The translations under genes were made by a program, and so were the position numbers. Below, piece after piece: positions 6,893-63,400 of a stretch of 64,000 nucleotides of DNA (positions are counted from its first letter, which is position 1; each line of letters starts with the position of its first letter). Location: assembly GCA_023485685.1 (NCBI GenBank), contig JAMCZK010000013.1, forward strand, positions 442-64,441. Reading direction: 5' to 3'. The stretch comes from Chloroflexota bacterium (GTDB taxonomy: Bacteria > Chloroflexota > Anaerolineae > Anaerolineales > UBA11579). Below the pieces are notes generated by a model. It was not told the origin of the DNA, did no database searches, and saw only the letters and a list, made by a program, of their open reading frames with translations.

Positions 6893-7849
6893 GTGATGCG
6901 CAGTTTTGCAGGACGAGATATTCTCTCTTTGAAAGATTTTGAACGCCAGGAATTTTTCCGCGTCTTTGAGATTGCTGAAGACCTGGAACATTTTGCCCGT
7001 GACCGCCAGAACACGGACTTGCTGAAGGAAAAGACGCTGGTCACCGCGTTCTACCAGCCCAGCACCCGCACACGTCTGGCCCACGAAGCGGCCATGATCC
7101 GTTTAGGCGGACAGGTAACCGGCTTCGCCGATGCCAAGATGACCCGTGCCGGCGATTTTTACCAGGAGTCGATCAAGGACACGGTAAAGATGCTGGAGTT
7201 CTACGGGGACGTGATTGTGATGCGCCATTTTCAGCAAGGGGCCCCGCATGAGGCGGCCAAATGGGCCAGTATCCCCATCATCAATGGTGGTGACGGCTGG
7301 GGCGAGCACCCGACCCAGATCCTGACCGACCTCTACACCGTGTGGAAGGAAAAGGGCACCATCGATGGGCTCAAATGGCTTGCCGTAGGGGATATGCGCA
7401 TGCGCACCATGCACTCCTTGGCTTATGGCCTGACTCAATTCGACTGCCCGATCACCTTCGTGGCGCCCCCAGACATGTCCCTGACCAAAGAGTTCAAGGA
7501 TGAATTAAAGCAGTACAGCCTCAACTATAAGGAAGCGGAACATGTCGAACAGGCCATCGCGGAGGCCGACGTCATTCTGGTGGAGCCGGTAGTGCAGCCA
7601 GATTACACGAAATCCCGCGACGAGCGTTCGGGCGACGTGAATTTGACGCCAGCCAACTACAAGATCACCCGCGAACTGCTATCGACAAAGGCTAAATCGG
7701 ACGCCATCTTGCTGCATTCCCTGCCGCGCATGGACGAGATTCCGCCCGATGTAGACATCACCCGCTGGTCGCGCTATTGGCAGGAAGCCTTTAATGGCGT
7801 AGTCATGCGCATGGCGCTTTTGGCGCTAGTTTTAGGCGCCACTGAATGA
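6893..7849 (+). CDS. Aspartate-carbamoyltransferase-like transcarbamylase, substrate uncertain
   Basis: Carbamoyl-phosphate site motifs STRTR, VMRH and EHPTQ, plus HSLPR in place of HPLPR. The canonical R-x-Q-x-E-R aspartate-binding segment is replaced by EPVVQPDY. Confidence 0.75.
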   Translation: MMRSFAGRDILSLKDFERQEFFRVFEIAEDLEHFARDRQNTDLLKEKTLVTAFYQPSTRTRLAHEAAMIRLGGQVTGFADAKMTRAGDFYQESIKDTVKMLEFYGDVIVMRHFQQGAPHEAAKWASIPIINGGDGWGEHPTQILTDLYTVWKEKGTIDGLKWLAVGDMRMRTMHSLAYGLTQFDCPITFVAPPDMSLTKEFKDELKQYSLNYKEAEHVEQAIAEADVILVEPVVQPDYTKSRDERSGDVNLTPANYKITRELLSTKAKSDAILLHSLPRMDEIPPDVDITRWSRYWQEAFNGVVMRMALLALVLGATE

Positions 7850-7861
7850 ATAATGAAGTTT

Positions 7862-7893
7862 GATAGTCAGGTAGTCGTGTAGTCGGATAGTCA
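7862..7893. repeat. Four tandem 8-nt units with a TAGTC core (left flank of four-helix-bundle cassette 1)
   Basis: Reads gatagtca ggtagtcg tgtagtcg gatagtca. It is the inverted counterpart of the array at 8192-8215. Confidence 0.8.
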
Positions 7894-7895
7894 AA

Positions 7896-8198
7896 ATGCC
7901 AAAGATAGAGCGCTTCGAAGACCTGCAAAGCTGGCAGAAAGCTCGTTTGCTAGTAAATCGGATCTATAAACTTACGCTGAATGGTTCATTTTCAAAAGAC
8001 TTTGCTTTGCGAGATCAGATTCGACGATCCGGTGGATCGGTGATGCACAACATAGCGGAAGGTTTTGACGCCGGTTCAGATCTTGAGTTCGTTCGCTTTC
8101 TTAAAATGGCTCGCCGATCGGCAAGTGAAGTTCAATCCCAGTTATATCTGGCAGTTGATCTCAACTACATCAGTCCTGAAGAAATGAATGTCGACTAA
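7896..8198 (+). CDS. Four-helix-bundle protein (23S rRNA intervening-sequence protein / Avd-like family)
   Basis: 100 aa. FEDLQSWQKARLL...IRRSGGSVMHNIAEGF...FLKMARRSASEVQSQLYLA matches the family signature. The ORF is visibly more AT-rich than its neighbours. Confidence 0.85.
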   Translation: MPKIERFEDLQSWQKARLLVNRIYKLTLNGSFSKDFALRDQIRRSGGSVMHNIAEGFDAGSDLEFVRFLKMARRSASEVQSQLYLAVDLNYISPEEMNVD

Positions 8199-8215
8199 TT
8201 GACTAGGAGACTAAG
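8192..8215. repeat. Three tandem 8-nt units with a GACTA core (right flank of cassette 1; inverted relative to 7862-7893)
   Basis: Reads cgactaat tgactagg agactaag. The Shine-Dalgarno AGGAGA of the next gene is embedded in the array. Confidence 0.75.
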
Positions 8216-8216
8216 C

Positions 8217-9200
8217 ATGCAGACTAACTTACGCGGTCGCGATTTCATTAGCGACCTGGACTTTAGCAAGGAAGAAATCGAAACCGTTTTAGATGTAGCC
8301 TGGGACTTGAAGCGCAAGCGCGCCCTTGGGGAGCCGCACGCTCTTTTACGAGACAAGGTGCTGGCCATGCTCTTTTTCTTTTCGAGCACGCGCACTCGCG
8401 GCTCTTTCGAAGCGGGTATGGCTCAATTGGGCGGGCACGCCGCCTTCATTGAATCTCGCACCACCCAGATTTCACATGGGGATACGGAAAAGGAAATGGG
8501 CCATATCTTCGGCCGATATTTCGATGGCATCGCCATCCGCCACGTGGAGTGGGGTGTGGGCAACCGCTACCTCAATCTGGTGGCAGAAGCCTCCGGGGTG
8601 CCGGTGCTCAACATGCAGTGCGAGATCTACCACCCCCACCAATGCCTGGCCGATCTCATGACCATGATGGAGAAGTTCAGCACTCGCAGCTTGCGCGGCA
8701 AGCGCGTAGTGGTTTCCTGGGCTTACGCCTCCAGCTACCTCAAACCTATTTCAGTTCCCCAATCGCTGATTTTGCAGCTGCCTCGCTTCGGCGCAGACGT
8801 TGTACTTTCCCACCCCAAGGGCTTTGAGTTGATGCCAGAGATCATGGATCAAGCCAAGTCGCTTTCCAAGCGATACAAGACTGGCTTTGATGTGGTCCAC
8901 GACATGAAGGAAGGCTTCGAGGACGCCGACGTGGTGTACGCGAAATCCTGGGGACCGCTACTGACGACTTCGGATGTCGCCAAAGGCAAAGAGTTGCAGG
9001 ACGCCAACAAAGATTGGATCACCGATGCCAAGAAGATGGCCGTTGCACACGACGATGCCATCTACATGCATCCACTTCCCGCGGACCGTGACGTGGAAAT
9101 CACCAGCGAAGTCCTGGACGGTCCACAATCGGTTGTGATCGACGAAGCTGAAAACCGCCTGCACGCGCAAAAGGCCGTGATGGCGTTAACGATGTGCTGA
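8217..9200 (+). CDS. Ornithine/aspartate transcarbamylase-fold enzyme (YgeW/OTCase-like), substrate uncertain
   Basis: Motifs STRTR and HPHQCLADL, MHPLPADRD (HPLP rather than the OTCase HCLP), and KSWG where OTCases have SMG. ATG 8217 follows AGGAGA; the track start at 8199 is less likely. Confidence 0.8.
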   Translation: MQTNLRGRDFISDLDFSKEEIETVLDVAWDLKRKRALGEPHALLRDKVLAMLFFFSSTRTRGSFEAGMAQLGGHAAFIESRTTQISHGDTEKEMGHIFGRYFDGIAIRHVEWGVGNRYLNLVAEASGVPVLNMQCEIYHPHQCLADLMTMMEKFSTRSLRGKRVVVSWAYASSYLKPISVPQSLILQLPRFGADVVLSHPKGFELMPEIMDQAKSLSKRYKTGFDVVHDMKEGFEDADVVYAKSWGPLLTTSDVAKGKELQDANKDWITDAKKMAVAHDDAIYMHPLPADRDVEITSEVLDGPQSVVIDEAENRLHAQKAVMALTMC

Positions 9201-9232
9201 GTACATAAGTAAATAGGTACACTGGTACATAA
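9201..9232. repeat. Four tandem 8-nt units with a GTACA core (left flank of four-helix-bundle cassette 2)
   Basis: Reads gtacataa gtaaatag gtacactg gtacataa. It is the inverted counterpart of the array at 9751-9782. Confidence 0.8.
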
Positions 9233-9243
9233 GGCAGGTTATC

Positions 9244-9747
9244 TTGCATCTTATTCGGGCAAATCATCAACCGTCTGGTGGAGATGGGAATAGCAGCTTT
9301 GAGGATCTGCAATGTTATAAACTTGCTCTTGATGTGATGGTCAACGCTCATCAGCTCGCTGTGAATCTGCCGCCACAAGAGAAATATGACTTGGCTCAGC
9401 AAATCCGAAGGGCTTCGAAAGGGATATCTGCAAATATTGCTGAGGGCTACGGCAGGTTCCATTTTCTAGATTCATTGCGATTCTATTCAATGGCAAGGGG
9501 TTCTTTAAATGAGACGCGAAATCATGTGATCACTGCCAAAGTGCTTGGATACATCGAAGAATCCTTTTATCAACAGTTTGTTACACTCATGCGCGAAGCA
9601 GAAAAGACGCTGAATGGACTCATGCGCTATGTGCGTGAACAACGAAGGGGTGGCGACTTATATAAAAACAGCGTGATCCGCGAGGAAGCCGGCACATATG
9701 AAGCTGAATTCTCTGACTATCTGGACGAACTAAGACCCCACGAATGA
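9244..9747 (+). CDS. Four-helix-bundle protein (23S rRNA intervening-sequence protein / Avd-like family)
   Basis: FEDLQCYKLAL...QIRRASKGISANIAEGYGRF...FYSMARGSLNETRNH matches the family signature. TTG is the only in-frame start. The ORF is AT-rich relative to its neighbours. Confidence 0.8.
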   Translation: MHLIRANHQPSGGDGNSSFEDLQCYKLALDVMVNAHQLAVNLPPQEKYDLAQQIRRASKGISANIAEGYGRFHFLDSLRFYSMARGSLNETRNHVITAKVLGYIEESFYQQFVTLMREAEKTLNGLMRYVREQRRGGDLYKNSVIREEAGTYEAEFSDYLDELRPHE

Positions 9748-9750
9748 CCC

Positions 9751-9782
9751 TTATGTACTTATCTACTTGTGTACTAATCTAC
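9751..9782. repeat. Four tandem 8-nt units with a TGTAC/TCTAC core (right flank of cassette 2)
   Basis: Reads ttatgtac ttatctac ttgtgtac taatctac. The innermost unit is the exact reverse complement of gtacataa at 9225-9232. Confidence 0.8.
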
Positions 9783-9808
9783 TCATCGCCAAAGGAGCTT
9801 CCTTCTAA

Positions 9809-10753
9809 ATGACTACCAAACGCGTCGCTGTTGTTGCCGTGGGGGGCAACGCACTCATAAAAGAAAAGGGAAAGCAGTCGGTCCCCGACCAATTTGCCGC
9901 TGCCAGCGAAACGATGGGATACATCGCCGGCATGATTGTAGAAGGTTGGGATGTGGTCGTCACACACGGGAACGGGCCGCAGGTGGGTTTTATCCTGCGC
10001 CGTTCCGAGTTGTCATCCCATGAATTGCACCCGGTGCCGCTGGACTATTGTGGCGCGGATACCCAAGGGGCGATCGGTTACATGTTCCAGCAATCGCTGC
10101 GCAACGAGTTCAAGAAACGCGGCATGAAAAAACATGCAGTAACGGTGGTGACTCAATGTCTGGTGGATAAGAACGATGATGCCTTCAAGAATCCCACGAA
10201 ACCAATCGGCTCGTTCTTGGATGAAAGCACCGCCAAAGCACGTATGGCTGAAGGGAAACATGTCATGGAAGATGCCGGGCGCGGCTGGCGCGAGGTGGTC
10301 GCCTCACCGATACCACAAGAGATCATCGAAGCCCCCGCCATCAAAAAGCTTATCGAGCATGACTTTACGGTGATCGGAGTGGGTGGGGGAGGCATCCCGG
10401 TTATCGAAGATGATGCTGGGGATTTGGTCGGTACGGCGGCCGTAATCGATAAGGATTTCGCCTCCAGCTTGCTGGCGCGCGAAATTAAGGCGGACCTGCT
10501 GCTGATCTCGACTGCGGTAGAGAAGGTTGCTATCAATTTCAACAAACCCAACCAGAAAAATTTGGATCGGATGACAATTGCTGAGGCCGAGCAATACATC
10601 AAGGAGGGCCACTTTGCCAAAGGCAGCATGCTGCCCAAGGTGCAGGCGGCGATCCTGTTTTTGATGGCTGGCGGAAAACAAGCGTTGATCACCGATCCGC
10701 CGAATATCACCAACGCCTTGAATGGGAAGACTGGAACCTGGATCGTTCCTTAG
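9809..10753 (+). CDS. arcC: Carbamate kinase
   Basis: 314 aa. Motifs VVAVGGNAL, VVTHGNGPQVG and GVGGGGIPV, with overall carbamate-kinase length. Confidence 0.93.
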   Translation: MTTKRVAVVAVGGNALIKEKGKQSVPDQFAAASETMGYIAGMIVEGWDVVVTHGNGPQVGFILRRSELSSHELHPVPLDYCGADTQGAIGYMFQQSLRNEFKKRGMKKHAVTVVTQCLVDKNDDAFKNPTKPIGSFLDESTAKARMAEGKHVMEDAGRGWREVVASPIPQEIIEAPAIKKLIEHDFTVIGVGGGGIPVIEDDAGDLVGTAAVIDKDFASSLLAREIKADLLLISTAVEKVAINFNKPNQKNLDRMTIAEAEQYIKEGHFAKGSMLPKVQAAILFLMAGGKQALITDPPNITNALNGKTGTWIVP

Positions 10754-16563: not shown

Positions 16564-18096
16564 ATGTTGCTTTTTCTTCCCTTAATTATTTTTGGGGCCA
16601 CGTTAGTGGCCTTGCTGGCCGGCAATCTATTTCAACGCAACTTCCGTTCGAGTTGGCTGCTCAGTGTGAGCGGCGCCGCGCTTTCCTTCCTTGCCTTGCT
16701 TTTCCTTAGATTGCGCCTTCCGTTATCTTTAAGCTTCTCAGCCTGGTGGGCAGGCGAAGGCTTGTTTTCCTCGTCCAGTTTCCTGCTGGATGGCGTAGCC
16801 TGGCTATTTGCCTATATTCTGAGCGGGCTGGTATTGGCTTTTTTCCTGATCCAGGTCCACGAGGCCGTCAGCCAGCAGTGGCTCACTTGGGCATCTAGCC
16901 TTGCCCTGGCGGCGGCCAGCCTGTTAGCTGTCTTCTCGGGTGATTTGCTCACCTGGGCATTTTTCTGGGTCCTGGTCGACGCCATGGCAACTCTCAGCGT
17001 GTTCAGGCAATTCACGAAACCAGAAGAGCGCATTGCCGCGCTTGCCTTTCTCCCGGCGAACATCTCTGCCACTTTCCTCTTGCTGGCTGCCTGGATTCTT
17101 TCTGCCCCGCCAGGCCAAGTCGCCAATCTCCTAGTATTGTTGAGCGCGGCTTTACGCTTGGGAATATTTGCGCTTCGCCATAGTGGCTCAGGAATCACTA
17201 AGGGTTCCAATCCATCCTTCTCCTTGCGCCTTATTTCAATAACCTCGGTTCTGGTTTTGTTGGCTCGTCCCTTGGCAATAGAAGGGTTTGCGTTGATCGC
17301 CGTGCTGGTCCTCCTTTTGCTCCCTGGGCTGAACAGCGCGGTTCGATTTCTGCAGCCCAAGCAAGGAATGGAAACTACCGGATACTTCGAATATGGATTT
17401 GCTACGCTGGTTTTAGCAGCGGCCAGCTTGGGCCGGCCCACTGCAGCCGTCGCTTTTGGTCTGGCGCTGATGGTCGGCAGGAGTTTATTGCTGCTGGTTC
17501 AAAATGCCGGGCGGTTTCGCTGGCCCGTGATCATCTTGTCTGCATTTTTGCTGAGCAGCTTGCCTTTTAGCCCGACAATTTCTGCTAATGAATTCTACGG
17601 ATCTTCATCGATTGCATTTGCTTTCTTCCCTATCCACGCGACGCTGTTGGCCGGATGGCTGCGCCATGCCAGGGCCCAGGCGCCGGAGGAGGCGCTTGCT
17701 GAACCCTGGATGCGTACGATGAGGATGCTTGGTTTGGTCCTACTGCCGGTGACCGTCCTCCTTTTTGGCTTTGGCCTGGCTCCTTCGTTTTCTACGGAGG
17801 CAACTGATTTTTCCTTCTGGCCTGCGATCGTTGTGCTGATCATTGCTGCGCTGTTTTTCATTGCGAGCGAAAAAACCCGTCCTCCGCAAGTTGTCCCACC
17901 AATATACGCAAGTGCGATAGCCACAATCTTCTCCTTGCGCTGGCTGGAAGCCTCGTTCGTTTGGACGCTCAGGGCGCTTGCCTGGTTATTGAATGTGGTT
18001 AGCCGGGTTCTTGAAGGCCAGGCGGGTGTCCTGTGGGCTTTACTGGTGATCGCTCTTTTGCTGTCGCTGGCTTCTCAATTCGCCCTGGCTGGTTAG
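16564..18096 (+). CDS. Polytopic membrane protein, degenerate NuoL/M/N-MrpA/D antiporter-like
   Basis: 510 aa with about 14 predicted hydrophobic spans. The N-terminal pattern LLDGVAWLF...FSGDLLTWAFFWVLVD resembles the antiporter-subunit TM3-5 region, but the conserved WE glutamate is absent. Starts 3 nt after the hydantoinase stop. Confidence 0.5.
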   Translation: MLLFLPLIIFGATLVALLAGNLFQRNFRSSWLLSVSGAALSFLALLFLRLRLPLSLSFSAWWAGEGLFSSSSFLLDGVAWLFAYILSGLVLAFFLIQVHEAVSQQWLTWASSLALAAASLLAVFSGDLLTWAFFWVLVDAMATLSVFRQFTKPEERIAALAFLPANISATFLLLAAWILSAPPGQVANLLVLLSAALRLGIFALRHSGSGITKGSNPSFSLRLISITSVLVLLARPLAIEGFALIAVLVLLLLPGLNSAVRFLQPKQGMETTGYFEYGFATLVLAAASLGRPTAAVAFGLALMVGRSLLLLVQNAGRFRWPVIILSAFLLSSLPFSPTISANEFYGSSSIAFAFFPIHATLLAGWLRHARAQAPEEALAEPWMRTMRMLGLVLLPVTVLLFGFGLAPSFSTEATDFSFWPAIVVLIIAALFFIASEKTRPPQVVPPIYASAIATIFSLRWLEASFVWTLRALAWLLNVVSRVLEGQAGVLWALLVIALLLSLASQFALAG

Positions 18097-40804: not shown

Positions 40805-40868
40805 TATTGCGTATTGCGTATTACGTAATACGCAATACGTAATACGTAATACGTAATACGTAATACGA
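40805..40868. repeat. Palindromic array of nine 7-nt units (ATTGCGT x2, ATTACGT | AATACGC, AATACGT x4, AATACGA) in the dnaK-dnaJ spacer
   Basis: Perfect 30-nt palindrome at 40810-40839, centred on tacgta. It extends to about 20 bp per arm if one G-U pair is allowed, and extra right-arm units follow. Confidence 0.85.
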
Positions 40869-42075: not shown

Positions 42076-42771
42076 CTATGGGAAAAGTCTCCAAAAACTT
42101 ACTGGGTTGCCGGACGGTACAAAGATCGTGCCTAAAGCCACGTTGTTACAGCCTGCCATCGTACGGAAGGTGTTGTCAAATGAATAGAGAGTCCCGTTTT
42201 CTATGATGGACAAACGGTTGCCATTCTCATCAACATCATAATCATTGTCCCAATTTGCACTTTCCATTGAGATCCTCCACCCTTCAATTGTTTTGCCCTC
42301 GATTGTCGCAGTTGTATACTTGGCCGAGTTCACAATCCCTATATGGCCTGCACCATAGCCGATATTGGTAATCAATCGCGAATAAGTTCCATCTCTGAAT
42401 TGCACATAAACTCTCGCCTCGGATTGCATAATAATTACATCGCCAGCTTGCGCGGTGGCGGTGTGTGAGCCAGTTGGATCAGGAGTTTCCAAAGTGCCTC
42501 CAACCTGATATCGCTGCAGGCCACTGTTCTTGGGAATAACCGAATCATTCGACCAATAATCAGCAGTGGCCATTTCCTCGGCGGTATCCCAACTGTGCCC
42601 TGCAATGGCGGGACGAGCCCCACCAATATCATAGAACAGCTTGTTTACCACGTATTCAACACACTGACACCGAGCGGCATCTTGTTTGGCATTTACGTTT
42701 GATGGGATTAAAAGTAAAAGTAATAATGCAATCAATATTACAGTTTTGGTCGGTTTTATTGTATTTTTCAT
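42076..42771 (-). CDS. Secreted CHAP-like cysteine amidase/peptidase domain protein (tentative)
   Basis: Signal peptide, then a Cys context ARCQCVEYVV and a His context GAGHIGIV preceded by GDVIIM, as in CHAP domains. The gene is visibly AT-rich relative to its neighbours. Confidence 0.5.
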   Translation of the reverse strand: MKNTIKPTKTVILIALLLLLLIPSNVNAKQDAARCQCVEYVVNKLFYDIGGARPAIAGHSWDTAEEMATADYWSNDSVIPKNSGLQRYQVGGTLETPDPTGSHTATAQAGDVIIMQSEARVYVQFRDGTYSRLITNIGYGAGHIGIVNSAKYTTATIEGKTIEGWRISMESANWDNDYDVDENGNRLSIIENGTLYSFDNTFRTMAGCNNVALGTIFVPSGNPVSFWRLFP

Positions 42772-60403: not shown

Positions 60404-63400
60404 ATGAAACCAGCATTTTTGCGCGTCCTGACCAGCGCCATTCTCTTGGCGTTCCTGTTCGCTGCGGCATTGCCCGCAGCTGCCTTCGCCGACGAAGGCA
60501 CCCCGCCGCCCACGGAGGAACCGGCGCCGCCGCCTGATGACGGCAGCGAGCCGGCCCCCGAGGAGGTTGCCTCTGATCCTGTCGAGGAAGCCGCGCCGAG
60601 CGAAGAGATAGCTCCCGAGACTGTTGAGGAAGCCGCGCCTAGCGAAGAGGTTGCCTCCGATCCTATAGAGGACCCTGCGGCGAGCGAAGAGATTGCTCCC
60701 GTCGAGAGTCCCGAAGAGGCTGCCTCCAGTGAAACTGCGGCAGAACCCGAGGTCGTCGAGGAGCCAGTGGTTGATGAACCAGCCATCGAGGATCCTGGCT
60801 TACTGCTCTCCGAGTTGCCGGAAGGCACTGAAGTGGTGGTGCTGGATGAGGCTGGCGAACCCCTGTCCCTGGCTAGTGAAGAAGCCGCGGATCTGCTTGC
60901 TACTGGCGACCCGATTTGGTGCCCAAGCGGCATGACGCCGGCGGCCGGGCCTGATGTATGGGCTGGAGGATGCTCTCCGTCGTTCTTGGGTCTGGATGAA
61001 CTGGAAGCCTGGCTGTACACGTATGACCCTACAGTCAATGGCGTGATCTGGATCGAAAAGACTTATGCCGATCCGAGCGGGCTTGATCTGGATGGGGGCT
61101 TTCTGACCAACATGGCGATCAAAACCTTGGCGGTTAAAGGCGGGTGGACCGGTTTGGGAACTGCGACAGTTGATACGGCAAATCCCTCCGAGGTAAACGA
61201 CTTTATCTGGATCTATAACTGGGCCAACGATGTGACCCTCAGCGATATCATCATCGATTCAACAGATAATACGGGCCTATATATCGATACCTCTGGCAAG
61301 GTCACTCTTACGCGGGTGGATGCTACCAACAATGACGGACACGGTGCTTATATAGAAAATACTGATGGCACCAAGGACGTAATGATTACTGATGGTGAGT
61401 TTACGGGTAATGGCGAATTTGGTGGCAACGGCTTGGTGGTGTACTCCAAAGGGGCCATCACACTGGCCAACGTGATTGCAAATGAGAACTGGGAGAAAGG
61501 CGCACTGCTGGTTAACTGTGCCTGGGATGATGTATTAGGGTGCACAGGCGCAGCGAGCGCCAAGCCCGTCACCCTGACCAGCGGCGCCTTCGAATTCAAT
61601 TACAACGGGGACAACGGCCTGGAGATCTATTCCGGTGGCGCCATCATGCTCAAAGACATGGACGTGATCGGCAATGCTGGCAGTGGGAACAATGGCCTCT
61701 GGCTGGACAACACAGCCGGCACGGGAATAGTCAGCCTCACCGGCACCAACGTCATTTCGGAGAACGCACCCGGCGGGCTGGTAGTTTTTAGCAATGGAGC
61801 TGTCACGGTTAACAATCTGGTGGCCAATTCCAATGGTTCCTGGTCGGGCGCGTACATCGATAATTCGACCGCCGGTTCAGCGCAACCGGTGACCCTAACT
61901 GGGTTCGTGGAAGCCAAATTCAATGGCCGCGGACTGCATATCCTTTCCAATGGCGTGATCACCCTGAACAACGTGAACGCCTCCAACAATACCAACAATT
62001 GCGAGGAATGCGGCGGCGCCTACCTTAGAAACGATTTTGCGTTCACTTCCGGGGTCAGCATATTGGGCACCAATATCTTCAACGACAACGGCGCCGGCGG
62101 GCTGACTGTTTGGAGTAAGGGAGTTATCAACATCAACAACCTGACGGCCAATGGAAACTCCATGTACTGTGTTTTGAATGAGGACGATGAATGCGATGGG
62201 TTTGACGGCGGCGACGGCGCTTATCTTGATAATCACAATGCTGTTACTCCAATGGCCGTCACCATCACCGTGAGCGGCGGCAACACGGACACCGAGTTGA
62301 AGGGTAATGAGGGTGACGGCATTCAAGTACTAAGCAAGGGTGCGATTAGCCTGAGCGGAGTAGTAGCTTGGAGTAACGGCTACGGCGGCTACCTGGATAA
62401 CTGGTGGGACGGCGCGGTTGGCGGCATCAGCTTCACCGGCTGGGGCGCGAGCTTTAGCTACAACGACAACTATGGGCTTGAGGCGTACAGCAAAAGTGCC
62501 ATTACCGTCGCTCACTTGTATGCCTGGGGTAATGGTGGATACGGGGCTTACATAGAAAATATGGGGAATGTGACCTTTAGCGGAGATAGCAGCTTTGGTG
62601 ATAACGGGGGCAGCGGCCTGGAGATCGCCAGCCATGGCGCTATCTCCCTGAACACCTTGTACGCTGCTCGCAACGCCGGAATAGGTGTTGACCTATACAA
62701 CGCATACGAAGGTATTTCACAAAATGTCAATTTAACAGGTGCTAGCTACGAGTTCCAAGAGAACGCCCTCGGGCTGGTCATCTCTTCCTTTGGCACTATC
62801 ACGATCGCCAACATCAACGCTCATGACAACGGGGACTTTGGCGCAGTGCTGGATAACTGCCTGCAGGAAGGCGGCGCATGCTGGAATCCGGCGGCCAAGA
62901 CAGTTACCTTGACCGGGGACAATACCTTCGAACGCAACGAATGGACTGGCCTGGATATCAGCAGCAAGGGCAGCATCACGATAAATAATGTGATCGCCAG
63001 TGACAACGGCGGGTTTGGCGCCTACTTGGATAACCAGTGGCCAGGCGCCGTTGGCGCAGTTAATGTCAATAACACTCCCACCTATTGGCCGGAATTCTCC
63101 GGCAATGGGATGGACGGCCTGACGATTTACAGTAATGGGGCTGTAACGGTCAAAGACCTGGACGCTTACGATAATGGTTGGTGGGAGGACACATCCTACA
63201 CTTTCGGGTACGGCGTTTATATCAACACTTACGGTAATGTCATGCTGGGTACCAGCCGCTCCGGATGGTGGAATAGCTTGAGCAATAACTTCCTGTCTGG
63301 TTTGGAAATCTACACCAGTGGGACTGTAACGCTCAGCAATCTGACCGCCTGGGGTAATGGTTGGGAAACTGAAGATCCTGAATACATCCCGTACGGCTAT

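Follow-up and report, generated by a model that had tools for sequence, protein, structure and literature searches.

What are two small open reading frames (ORFs), each bracketed by inverted arrays of short repeats, doing in successive spacers of one operon? The question is raised by a 64,000-nucleotide (nt) stretch of contig JAMCZK010000013.1 from a Chloroflexota bacterium of the Anaerolineales (assembly GCA_023485685.1), referred to here as the window. Cassette 1, with the gene IVP1, and cassette 2, with the gene IVP2, lie in an operon encoding two carbamoyltransferases and carbamate kinase. A first-pass annotation, made from the sequence alone, had assigned both ORFs to a four-helix-bundle family. 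It had proposed that their flanks form stems in the polycistronic mRNA, as around the intervening sequences (IVS) of 23S rRNA, or that they are the ends of a small selfish element. In our analysis, each cassette is probably an IVS-type element in an mRNA spacer, composed of a PF05635 gene and of complementary arms that are built from 7-8-nt units and form an RNA stem. The bracketing architecture is a property of the PF05635 family, and the gene is usually flanked by such arrays.

Bracketing arrays in the PF05635 family

Eighty loci encoding relatives of the two proteins were collected in a census of species-representative genomes, which belong to Chloroflexota, Acidobacteriota, Bacteroidota, Planctomycetota, Verrucomicrobiota, Nitrospirota, Desulfobacterota, the candidate phyla radiation and others. 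On visual inspection, a tandem array stands upstream of the gene and the inverse array downstream in most of these loci. In a strict test, applied to 74 loci, one exact 5-mer had to recur on the left in a chain of two or more at a spacing of 6-10 nt, and its reverse complement had to do so on the right. The test was passed by 53% of the loci, by 2% of 164 control genes that these loci also contained and by 0% of 370 shuffles; when chains of three or more were required, the values were 30%, 1% and 0%. According to these figures, other family members do possess inverted arrays, and the first-pass annotation is not refuted on this count. An autocorrelation criterion (75% match over four copies) was dropped in favour of the core-chain test, because spacers vary and arrays are therefore under-counted.

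Arrays in the census commonly comprise three to five units. The 5′ arm is poor in C (10%) and the 3′ arm poor in G (10%), on either strand, and neighbouring genes are co-oriented in about 77% of the loci. Six relatives located on viral contigs mostly possess the same layout of arrays around the IVP gene. One query alone returned 2,226 family matches at E<=1e-5, and members of the family are present in more than ten phyla.

Turnover of the repeat core

Short-period arrays were found on the flanks of every orthologue of the two cassettes, with a copy number of three to nine and a variable core. Cassette 1 carries TAGTC/GACTA or TAGTT/AACTA, and cassette 2 carries GTACA/TGTAC, ACAAGG/CCTTGT or ATAAGT/ACTTAT, depending on the lineage. 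In 20 IVP1-like loci, the share of left units with a terminal C agrees with the share of right units with an initial G (Pearson r=0.93). In the matrix of protein identities the TAGTC loci do not group as a clade, and the compensatory switch has therefore occurred more than once. Among the census loci, cognate arm pairs reached a median duplex energy of -37.6 kcal/mol, compared with -26.4 kcal/mol for non-cognate pairs (p=8e-15). Selection maintains the complementarity of the arms through the turnover of their sequence. Identity within arrays is 0.82 at the fifth core position and 0.36 at spacer positions, and a unit consists of a conserved 5-nt core and a free spacer of 2-3 nt.

The two cassettes of the carbamoyltransferase operon

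The arrays of both cassettes are present at the coordinates claimed for them and differ in core between the cassettes, according to the sequence, an inverted-repeat search and Tandem Repeats Finder, which recovers the 8-nt period in the arms (Table 1). As had been noted, the two innermost units of cassette 2 match each other exactly as reverse complements. The inverted-repeat search returned the arm pair 9198-9234/9749-9785 for cassette 2 (37 nt, 76% complementary) and the pair 7857-7877/8192-8212 for cassette 1. As non-coding series of three or more units of 7-8 nt, arranged head to tail, the arms qualify as tandem repeats similar to the cyanobacterial short tandem repeats (STRR).

Gene domain matches agree with the earlier description of one cassette per intercistronic gap, between carbamoyltransferases 1 and 2 and between carbamoyltransferase 2 and carbamate kinase. 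The stop codon of carbamoyltransferase 1 is located 12 nt upstream of the first unit of left arm 1, and the end of this arm is separated from the ATG of IVP1 by 2 nt. Right arm 1 overlaps the IVP1 stop codon, and its last units contain the Shine-Dalgarno (SD) sequence AGGAG of carbamoyltransferase 2 (8205-8209). The left arm of cassette 2 takes in the TGA stop of carbamoyltransferase 2. Cassette 2 extends over positions 9201-9786; it begins right at the upstream stop and ends before a residual 23-nt spacer, which resembles an empty site, contains the SD sequence AAAGGAG (9791-9797) and is followed by carbamate kinase.

The GC content of the cassettes is 0.45-0.46, compared with 0.54-0.56 in the neighbour genes, in line with the lower GC reported for both ORFs. 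The GC content at third codon positions (GC3) is 0.43 in both IVP1 and IVP2 and 0.65-0.71 in the flanking carbamoyltransferase and carbamate kinase genes. The 64-kb window contains two copies only. An independent Logan assembly of the region is 99.85% identical over 8.5 kb.

Table 1. Features of the two cassettes, their host genes and the gene-free hairpin of the window.
Feature	Position	Strand	Description	Repeat units
Carbamoyltransferase 1, upstream host gene	6896..7849	+	OTCace_N and OTCace; top NCBIfam match aspartate carbamoyltransferase	
Cassette 1 left arm	7862..7893	+	four 8-nt units, TAGTC core	GATAGTCA GGTAGTCG TGTAGTCG GATAGTCA
IVP1	7896..8198	+	PF05635/TIGR02436 four-helix-bundle ORF, 100 amino acids (aa)	
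Cassette 1 right arm	8192..8215	+	three 8-nt units, GACTA core	CGACTAAT TGACTAGG AGACTAAG
Carbamoyltransferase 2, host gene	8217..9200	+	ornithine/N-acetylornithine type	
Cassette 2 left arm, 37 nt	9198..9234	+	four 8-nt units, GTACA/GTAAA core, 9201-9232	GTACATAA GTAAATAG GTACACTG GTACATAA
IVP2	9244..9747	+	PF05635/TIGR02436 ORF, 167 aa, TTG start	
Cassette 2 right arm	9749..9785	+	four 8-nt units, TGTAC/TCTAC core, 9751-9782	TTATGTAC TTATCTAC TTGTGTAC TAATCTAC
Carbamate kinase, downstream host gene	9809..10753	+	AA_kinase domain	
ORF-less hairpin, dnaK-dnaJ gap	40805..40867	+	inverted 7-nt arrays	TATTGCG x3 / CGTAATA x6

A permissive Rfam scan of positions 7600-10000 gave no match. Promoter-like sites were no more numerous than expected from shuffles and were all on the minus strand. 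No intrinsic terminator detected by scanning coincides with the arm pairs, which are AT-rich and not followed by a T run. The insertion site is not a 23S rRNA helix, as both cassettes are located between protein genes of one operon. No transposase, recombinase or nuclease domain was detected in or beside the cassettes, in the window or in the examined orthologous loci.

Chance controls and arm pairing

Two independent scans of the whole 64 kb found non-coding arrays only at the four cassette flanks and in the dnaK-dnaJ gap, and shuffled sequence gave about one weak periodic-array match per window. The arm-arm duplex reached -26.8 kcal/mol in cassette 1 (z=-3.7) and -32.6 kcal/mol in cassette 2 (z=-5.3), and in both cases none of 500 shuffles was as good. 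The inverted repeats at the ends of both cassettes can form a long stem around the ORF, and in minimum free energy folds of both whole cassettes the left and right arms pair together. It was confirmed that the arrays are far beyond chance, and the description of the flanks as complementary arms is supported by the duplex energies, the pairing of cognate arms and the compensatory core switches across relatives. Ordinary spacer sequence, chance likeness or an assembly artefact can practically be ruled out on account of the shuffle controls, the independent assembly and the dozens of genomes with such cassettes.

Orthologues, empty sites and exchange of cassettes

The closest homologues of IVP1, with 72-82% identity, were found in the same carbamoyltransferase gap of several Anaerolineales genomes. 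Cassette 1 orthologues at this gap are those of loci L002-L012, L015, L021, L023, L024, L027 and L030-L032, and seven of these genomes came from the family census. The closest homologues of IVP2 are 59-79% identical by BLASTP and 56-77% identical by global alignment, and cassette 2 orthologues between carbamoyltransferase 2 and carbamate kinase are present in L012-L015. Both cassettes are carried by one 4.4-Mb contig of a relative. Anaerolineales relatives with protein identities as low as 56-63% still carry orthologous cassettes in these two operon gaps. This deep synteny identifies the cassettes as long-term residents, and a recent insertion was rejected. The identity of IVP2 declines in step with that of the host genes, which fits vertical descent with losses.

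Three relatives possess cassette 1 and lack cassette 2. In two of them, the gap is a clean one of 14-20 nt that contains an SD sequence only and no arms. The flanks are therefore not ordinary spacer kept by relatives without the ORF; had they been, this would have spoken against the earlier proposal. A target-site duplication was not visible between filled and empty cassette 2 sites. The carbamoyltransferase 2-carbamate kinase gap of one cassette-2-less relative (L011, 5426-5480) was also seen to harbour a direct array of about five TCAGGAA-like units of 7-8 nt, with no ORF.

The comparison of L002 with L012 revealed that cassette 1 is 95.5% identical at the DNA level, whereas the flanks are 83-84% identical. 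The synonymous divergence (dS) is 0.17 for IVP1 and 1.4-1.7 in the flanking genes, which are saturated at synonymous sites, and the block of high identity coincides with the arms and the ORF. As the two haplotypes each recur in independent samples and assemblies, the shared cassette is not a chimera. Other IVP1-like proteins (72-86% identity) with the same TAGTT/AACTA arms were found in other operons of related genomes, namely in a C39 peptidase-metallophosphoesterase gap, between two xanthine dehydrogenase subunits and upstream of coaD, and the copies at the carbamoyltransferase gap are not mutual closest relatives.

Over all pairs in the census, the proportion of protein pairs that share a core is 2-5% below 55% identity, 25% at 55-65%, 54% at 65-75% and 92% at 75% or above. 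The core GGTTC/GAACC is common to 68-73% identical proteins of Desulfobacterota, Bacteroidota and Acidobacteriota. In every host the GC3 of the ORF is 0.25-0.49, and this persistently low value agrees with a continuing influx from outside. The ORF and its arms are inherited, exchanged and lost together, and the repeat core tracks the protein phylogeny. The suggestion of a small selfish element is supported insofar as the unit is shared across diverged hosts and is present in other operons and phyla. The cassettes are not recent insertions, however, given their synteny. Of the traits of MITEs (miniature transposable elements with inverted repeats) and insertion sequences, inverted arms and related copies at different sites were found, whereas a target-site duplication and a transposase were not.

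The proteins IVP1 and IVP2

Both proteins score above the curated cut-offs of the family, as its first assignment had implied. The PF05635 profile matches IVP1 with 109.6 bits (E=1e-31) and IVP2 with 96.4 bits (E=1e-27), against a cut-off of 33.8, and the TIGR02436 profile with 99.8 and 92.5 bits, respectively, against a cut-off of 24. IVP2 aligns to positions 1-106 of the 106 profile positions of PF05635 and possesses conserved N- and C-terminal extensions besides. The closest solved structure to IVP2 by sequence is 2GSC, the protein XCC0516, which is a pentameric four-helix bundle (E=6e-12).

IVP1 covers positions 1-91 of the same profile only. Its family and position had been described correctly, but the ORF is a 3′-truncated copy, with 100 aa compared with about 122 aa in orthologues. 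A deletion of about 88 nt took the last 22 codons of IVP1 together with about two units of the right arm, and IVP1 of the window is a decaying copy. The isoelectric points (pI) of IVP1 and IVP2 are 6.6 and 6.1, and the family median is 8.8. The cassette proteins evolve faster than the flanking enzymes, as IVP1 is 76-81% identical where these enzymes are 94-99% identical. With a ratio of nonsynonymous to synonymous substitution rates (dN/dS) of about 0.09, the cassette proteins are under purifying selection.

Arrays and hairpins without the gene

The window also contains a periodic hairpin without an ORF in the dnaK-dnaJ gap. This hairpin is perfect and reaches -42.8 kcal/mol (z=-7.2). The same gap of three relatives carries a hairpin of other sequence, which is periodic in L225 (AGTGA/TCACT) and L227 (GTAA/TTAC) and a plain GC hairpin in L221/L224. 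ORF-less TAGTT/AACTA hairpins also adjoin some cassettes (L019, L022, L035).

As a reverse test, metagenomes were scanned for four copies of TAGTTN3 (L102-L220), a small sample with many short contigs. The scan was confounded by (TAGT)n microsatellites, many of them in AT-rich and probably non-bacterial DNA. After filtering, 53 true 8-periodic arrays were retained, of which nine are ORF-less hairpins, two are brackets (one with an IVP gene), 36 are solo arrays and six lie at contig ends. Some of the ORF-less TAGTT/AACTA hairpins are located upstream of genes. Most TAGTT arrays are without a family gene, and the implication thus runs from the gene to the arrays and not the reverse.

Some further observations were made in these genomes and in the window. 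Beside the ORF, a further periodic hairpin, complete, free of an ORF and of the same core, is present in the right gap of L019/L022 and of L033 and in the left gap of L035. In L019, four TAGT units and four ACTA units, separated by a loop, follow the IVP stop. Many periodic metagenome arrays sit at contig ends, which suggests breakage of short-read assemblies. The gap between the Fer2 and molybdopterin subunits of a xanthine dehydrogenase in L019 (10934-11163) contains inverted arrays of CACGGAT and ATCCG(C)G that bracket about 150 nt; this stretch contains only a called ORF of 27 aa and small internal hairpins and no family ORF, so that a different cargo is carried within the same kind of brackets. 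The same locus harbours a 96-aa GIY-YIG ORF in an operon spacer (17554-18039), enclosed by a long inverted repeat that is not periodic (CGTCATTGCGAG... / ...CTCGCAATGACG), which represents another small lodger of intercistronic gaps in the same genomes. Downstream of dnaJ, the window encodes a 231-aa ORF (42076-42771, minus strand) with a GC3 of 0.45, similar to the cassettes and different from its neighbours. It has no NCBIfam match and is possibly a further foreign gene. At 60579-60701, a large ORF that runs past the end of the window contains a tandem repeat of 42 nt (2.9 copies, 77% matches).

Interpretation of the cassettes

In the Coxiella IVS, three to four tandem heptamers (GACAGAT) immediately precede the S23p start and are part of a terminal stem of 28 bp, which RNase III cuts at the first repeat, and the copy number of the heptamer varies among strains (PMC4990558). 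The earlier comparison with 23S IVS architecture is thus well founded, and on the strength of this precedent the window cassettes can be read as IVS-type elements in mRNA spacers. Most probably, the two arms form a stem in the RNA, by which the cassette is looped out. In the operon transcript, they would pair into an imperfect stem of 25-37 bp, by which the insert of 0.35-0.6 kb would be looped out, and the upstream stop and the downstream ribosome-binding site would regain roughly their native spacing. The stem of cassette 2 would reach from the upstream stop to 23 nt before the next start, near the native spacer of 14-20 nt. Such restored spacing would explain that the operon tolerates the insert. 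By analogy with the Coxiella IVS, the stem is a likely substrate of RNase III. Array length may change through slippage, and DNA bracketed by a hairpin could be cleanly deleted.

Several results weigh against this interpretation. Folds of the whole cassettes were no more stable than those of shuffles (z=-0.24 and -0.90), which is why arm-arm duplexes were tested, and only the latter are significant. The mismatches in 63 stems include 54 G-U and 60 A-C pairs, and with no excess of G-U nothing points specifically to sense RNA over DNA. Together with strand-symmetric elements and mobility, this argues against a purely RNA-based explanation. A plain stem needs neither periodic units nor an identical core in each unit next to drifting spacers, and periods of 7 or 8 account for nearly all arrays of the census, with 6 or 9 hardly ever seen. 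Roughly half of the loci do not pass the strict test, and a few are without any arrays. Arrays and hairpins also occur without the gene and are not exclusive to it.

The cassette of L002 and L012 is younger than its flanks, one subfamily occupies several sites (the carbamoyltransferase, metallophosphoesterase, xanthine dehydrogenase and coaD gaps), the copies at the carbamoyltransferase site are no clade, and empty sites are clean. These observations agree with arms that act in the DNA as termini of a mobile element, either as ends similar to terminal inverted repeats or as hairpin or cruciform substrates, and serve insertion, homing into existing arrays, swapping of cassettes and clean excision, with the RNA stem as a by-product. 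Such a role is possible, though not probable. It would suit stems that are strand-symmetric for lack of a G-U excess, a core common to 68-73% identical proteins across phyla and a GC3 that is still low after long residence. However, no transposase, recombinase or nuclease domain accompanies the cassettes, the filled cassette 2 site differs from the empty one by no target-site duplication, and most orthologues look vertically inherited, with IVP2 identity tracking the host genes. The co-orientation of about 77% of the neighbours and the SD sequence embedded in an arm point instead to constraints of transcription and translation.

A core that is conserved over drifting spacers and follows the protein leaves room for sequence-specific recognition by the encoded protein. 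The arrays may be periodic binding sites, with each subunit of a ring-shaped homopentamer reading one 5-nt core in single-stranded RNA or DNA. Candidate target repeats are (NNTAGTYN)4 or (GTACANNN)4. Such binding would be in competition with arm pairing, would regulate how the flanking genes are processed or translated, and is compatible with the stem. We consider this rather unlikely. The core changes jointly in every unit of the two arms, it follows the protein and not the host, two cores stand beside two subfamilies in one genome, and the same core accompanies 68-73% identical proteins in three phyla, but this co-inheritance is equally explained by a cassette that moves as a unit. The conserved core and unconstrained spacer (0.82 vs 0.36) fit binding sites as well, although the spacers are still about 57% complementary between the arms, so that pairing is selected too, and cores drift fast among cassette 2 orthologues. 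Arrays of often three to five units with a period of 7-8, almost never 6 or 9, are consistent with a ring of subunits, as 2GSC is a homopentameric toroid (PMC4990558), and its homologue Avd binds RNA and the reverse transcriptase in diversity-generating retroelements (DGRs) (PMC10053308). The median family pI of 8.8 would favour binding, but the window proteins are not basic.

It is doubtful whether PF05635 proteins in general are ring-shaped, sequence-specific core binders, for which matching ORF-less arrays and hairpins in other operon spacers are targets in trans. If this were true, each subfamily and its repeats would constitute a mobile post-transcriptional (or DNA-level) regulon. It would also explain the function of the IVP/S23p/Avd-like family and the intergenic heptamer and octamer repeats (STRR, TAACTGA, GGGAATC) of several phyla.

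The gene-free hairpins suggest yet another explanation, in which periodic hairpins are mainly punctuation of host operons that acts on mRNA stability or translation, similar to STRR, repetitive extragenic palindromes (REP) and bacterial interspersed mosaic elements (BIME), and the ORFs are secondary lodgers of the loop. A hairpin is kept in the dnaK-dnaJ gap of the window and three relatives, with differing sequences and periodicity in three of the four, and ORF-less TAGTT/AACTA hairpins were found upstream of metagenome genes and beside cassettes. In Xanthomonas and Anabaena, convergent heptamer pairs and arrays in operon spacers have been described (PMC4692102). Nonetheless, this explanation is unlikely, as it accounts neither for a core that tracks the phylogeny of the ORF nor for the joint exchange and loss of arms and ORF, and the empty cassette 2 site keeps no hairpin.

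Comparison with known systems

Similar to the arms of the window, STRR-type repeats are tandem units of 7-8 nt in intergenic or operon spacers that often end just upstream of a start codon; STRR were reportedly described from cyanobacteria by Mazel et al. in 1990. The arrays of the window differ in that they bracket an ORF and their core co-varies with it. Other intergenic repeats include TAACTGA of Beggiatoaceae, Cyanobacteria and Bacteroidetes (PMC4679880), GGGAATC of Xanthomonas and GGGGAYT of Anabaena, with convergent inverted pairs and an occurrence in the pecE-pecF spacer (PMC4692102), and the heptamers of Nostoc (bioRxiv 10.1101/2022.06.06.494920). These heptamer and octamer arrays vary in copy number and have no assigned function (PMC4679880; PMC4692102; bioRxiv 10.1101/2022.06.06.494920). 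These papers make no connection between PF05635 genes and their repeats; neither 'S23' nor 'helix bundle' occurs in the text of the first two (PMC4679880, PMC4692102), and 'helix bundle', the one of these terms checked there, is absent from the Nostoc preprint (bioRxiv 10.1101/2022.06.06.494920). A full-text literature search of incomplete coverage returned no link of PF05635 genes to flanking periodic arrays beyond the Coxiella IVS.

REP hairpins can stabilise upstream mRNA. The cassettes resemble REP/BIME and MITEs in their small size, their inverted repeats, their place between cistrons and their tolerance by operons; they differ in that a RAYT or transposase partner and a target-site duplication are absent, in their periodic arms and in carrying a conserved protein gene. 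TRAP and HutP form homo-oligomeric rings that read a short conserved RNA core, a spaced triplet, which is repeated with few free spacer nucleotides. The likeness to the arrays is an analogy only, as the fold is unrelated and the period is 5-7 nt, compared with 7-8 nt in the arrays. We know of no function of PF05635/TIGR02436 outside DGRs. PF05635 is the Pfam family most often found beside DGR reverse transcriptases (PMC10053308), and the DGR accessory protein Avd is a homologous four-helix-bundle pentamer. However, the ORFs of the window adjoin carbamoyltransferases and carbamate kinase, with neither a reverse transcriptase nor a template or variable repeat. Their identification as parts of a DGR was rejected, since no reverse transcriptase is present near the cassettes or the orthologous loci.

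The S23p IVS, including the Coxiella heptamers, the intergenic heptamer arrays and the homology to Avd are already known. In the papers that could be searched, the generalisation to the whole family, the covariation of the arms and the correlation of core and protein in operon spacers appear to be undescribed. Bracketing of the gene, covariation of the arms and a core that tracks the protein tie the PF05635 family to the puzzle of intergenic repeats. In practice, short-read assemblies probably break at such cassettes and hairpins, which can also mislead the annotation of operons and spacers.

One of the closest known systems is the 23S rRNA IVS with an S23p/IVP ORF (Leptospira, Coxiella, Brucella and Xanthomonas-type). 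Similar to the cassettes, these IVS contain a PF05635 ORF in the loop of a terminal-inverted-repeat stem, and the ORF is prone to decay, in agreement with the truncated IVP1 of the window. The cassettes differ from them in their host RNA, which is a polycistronic mRNA spacer and not helix 25 or 45 of 23S rRNA, in arms built wholly of 7-8-nt units, in the SD sequence of the downstream gene in or beside the 3′ arm, and in proteins of the window type that are under purifying selection. The concept of the intervening sequence is thereby extended from rRNA to operon mRNAs. In 23S rRNA a native helix is extended by the IVS, and looping out of the cassettes would likewise restore the geometry of the cistrons.

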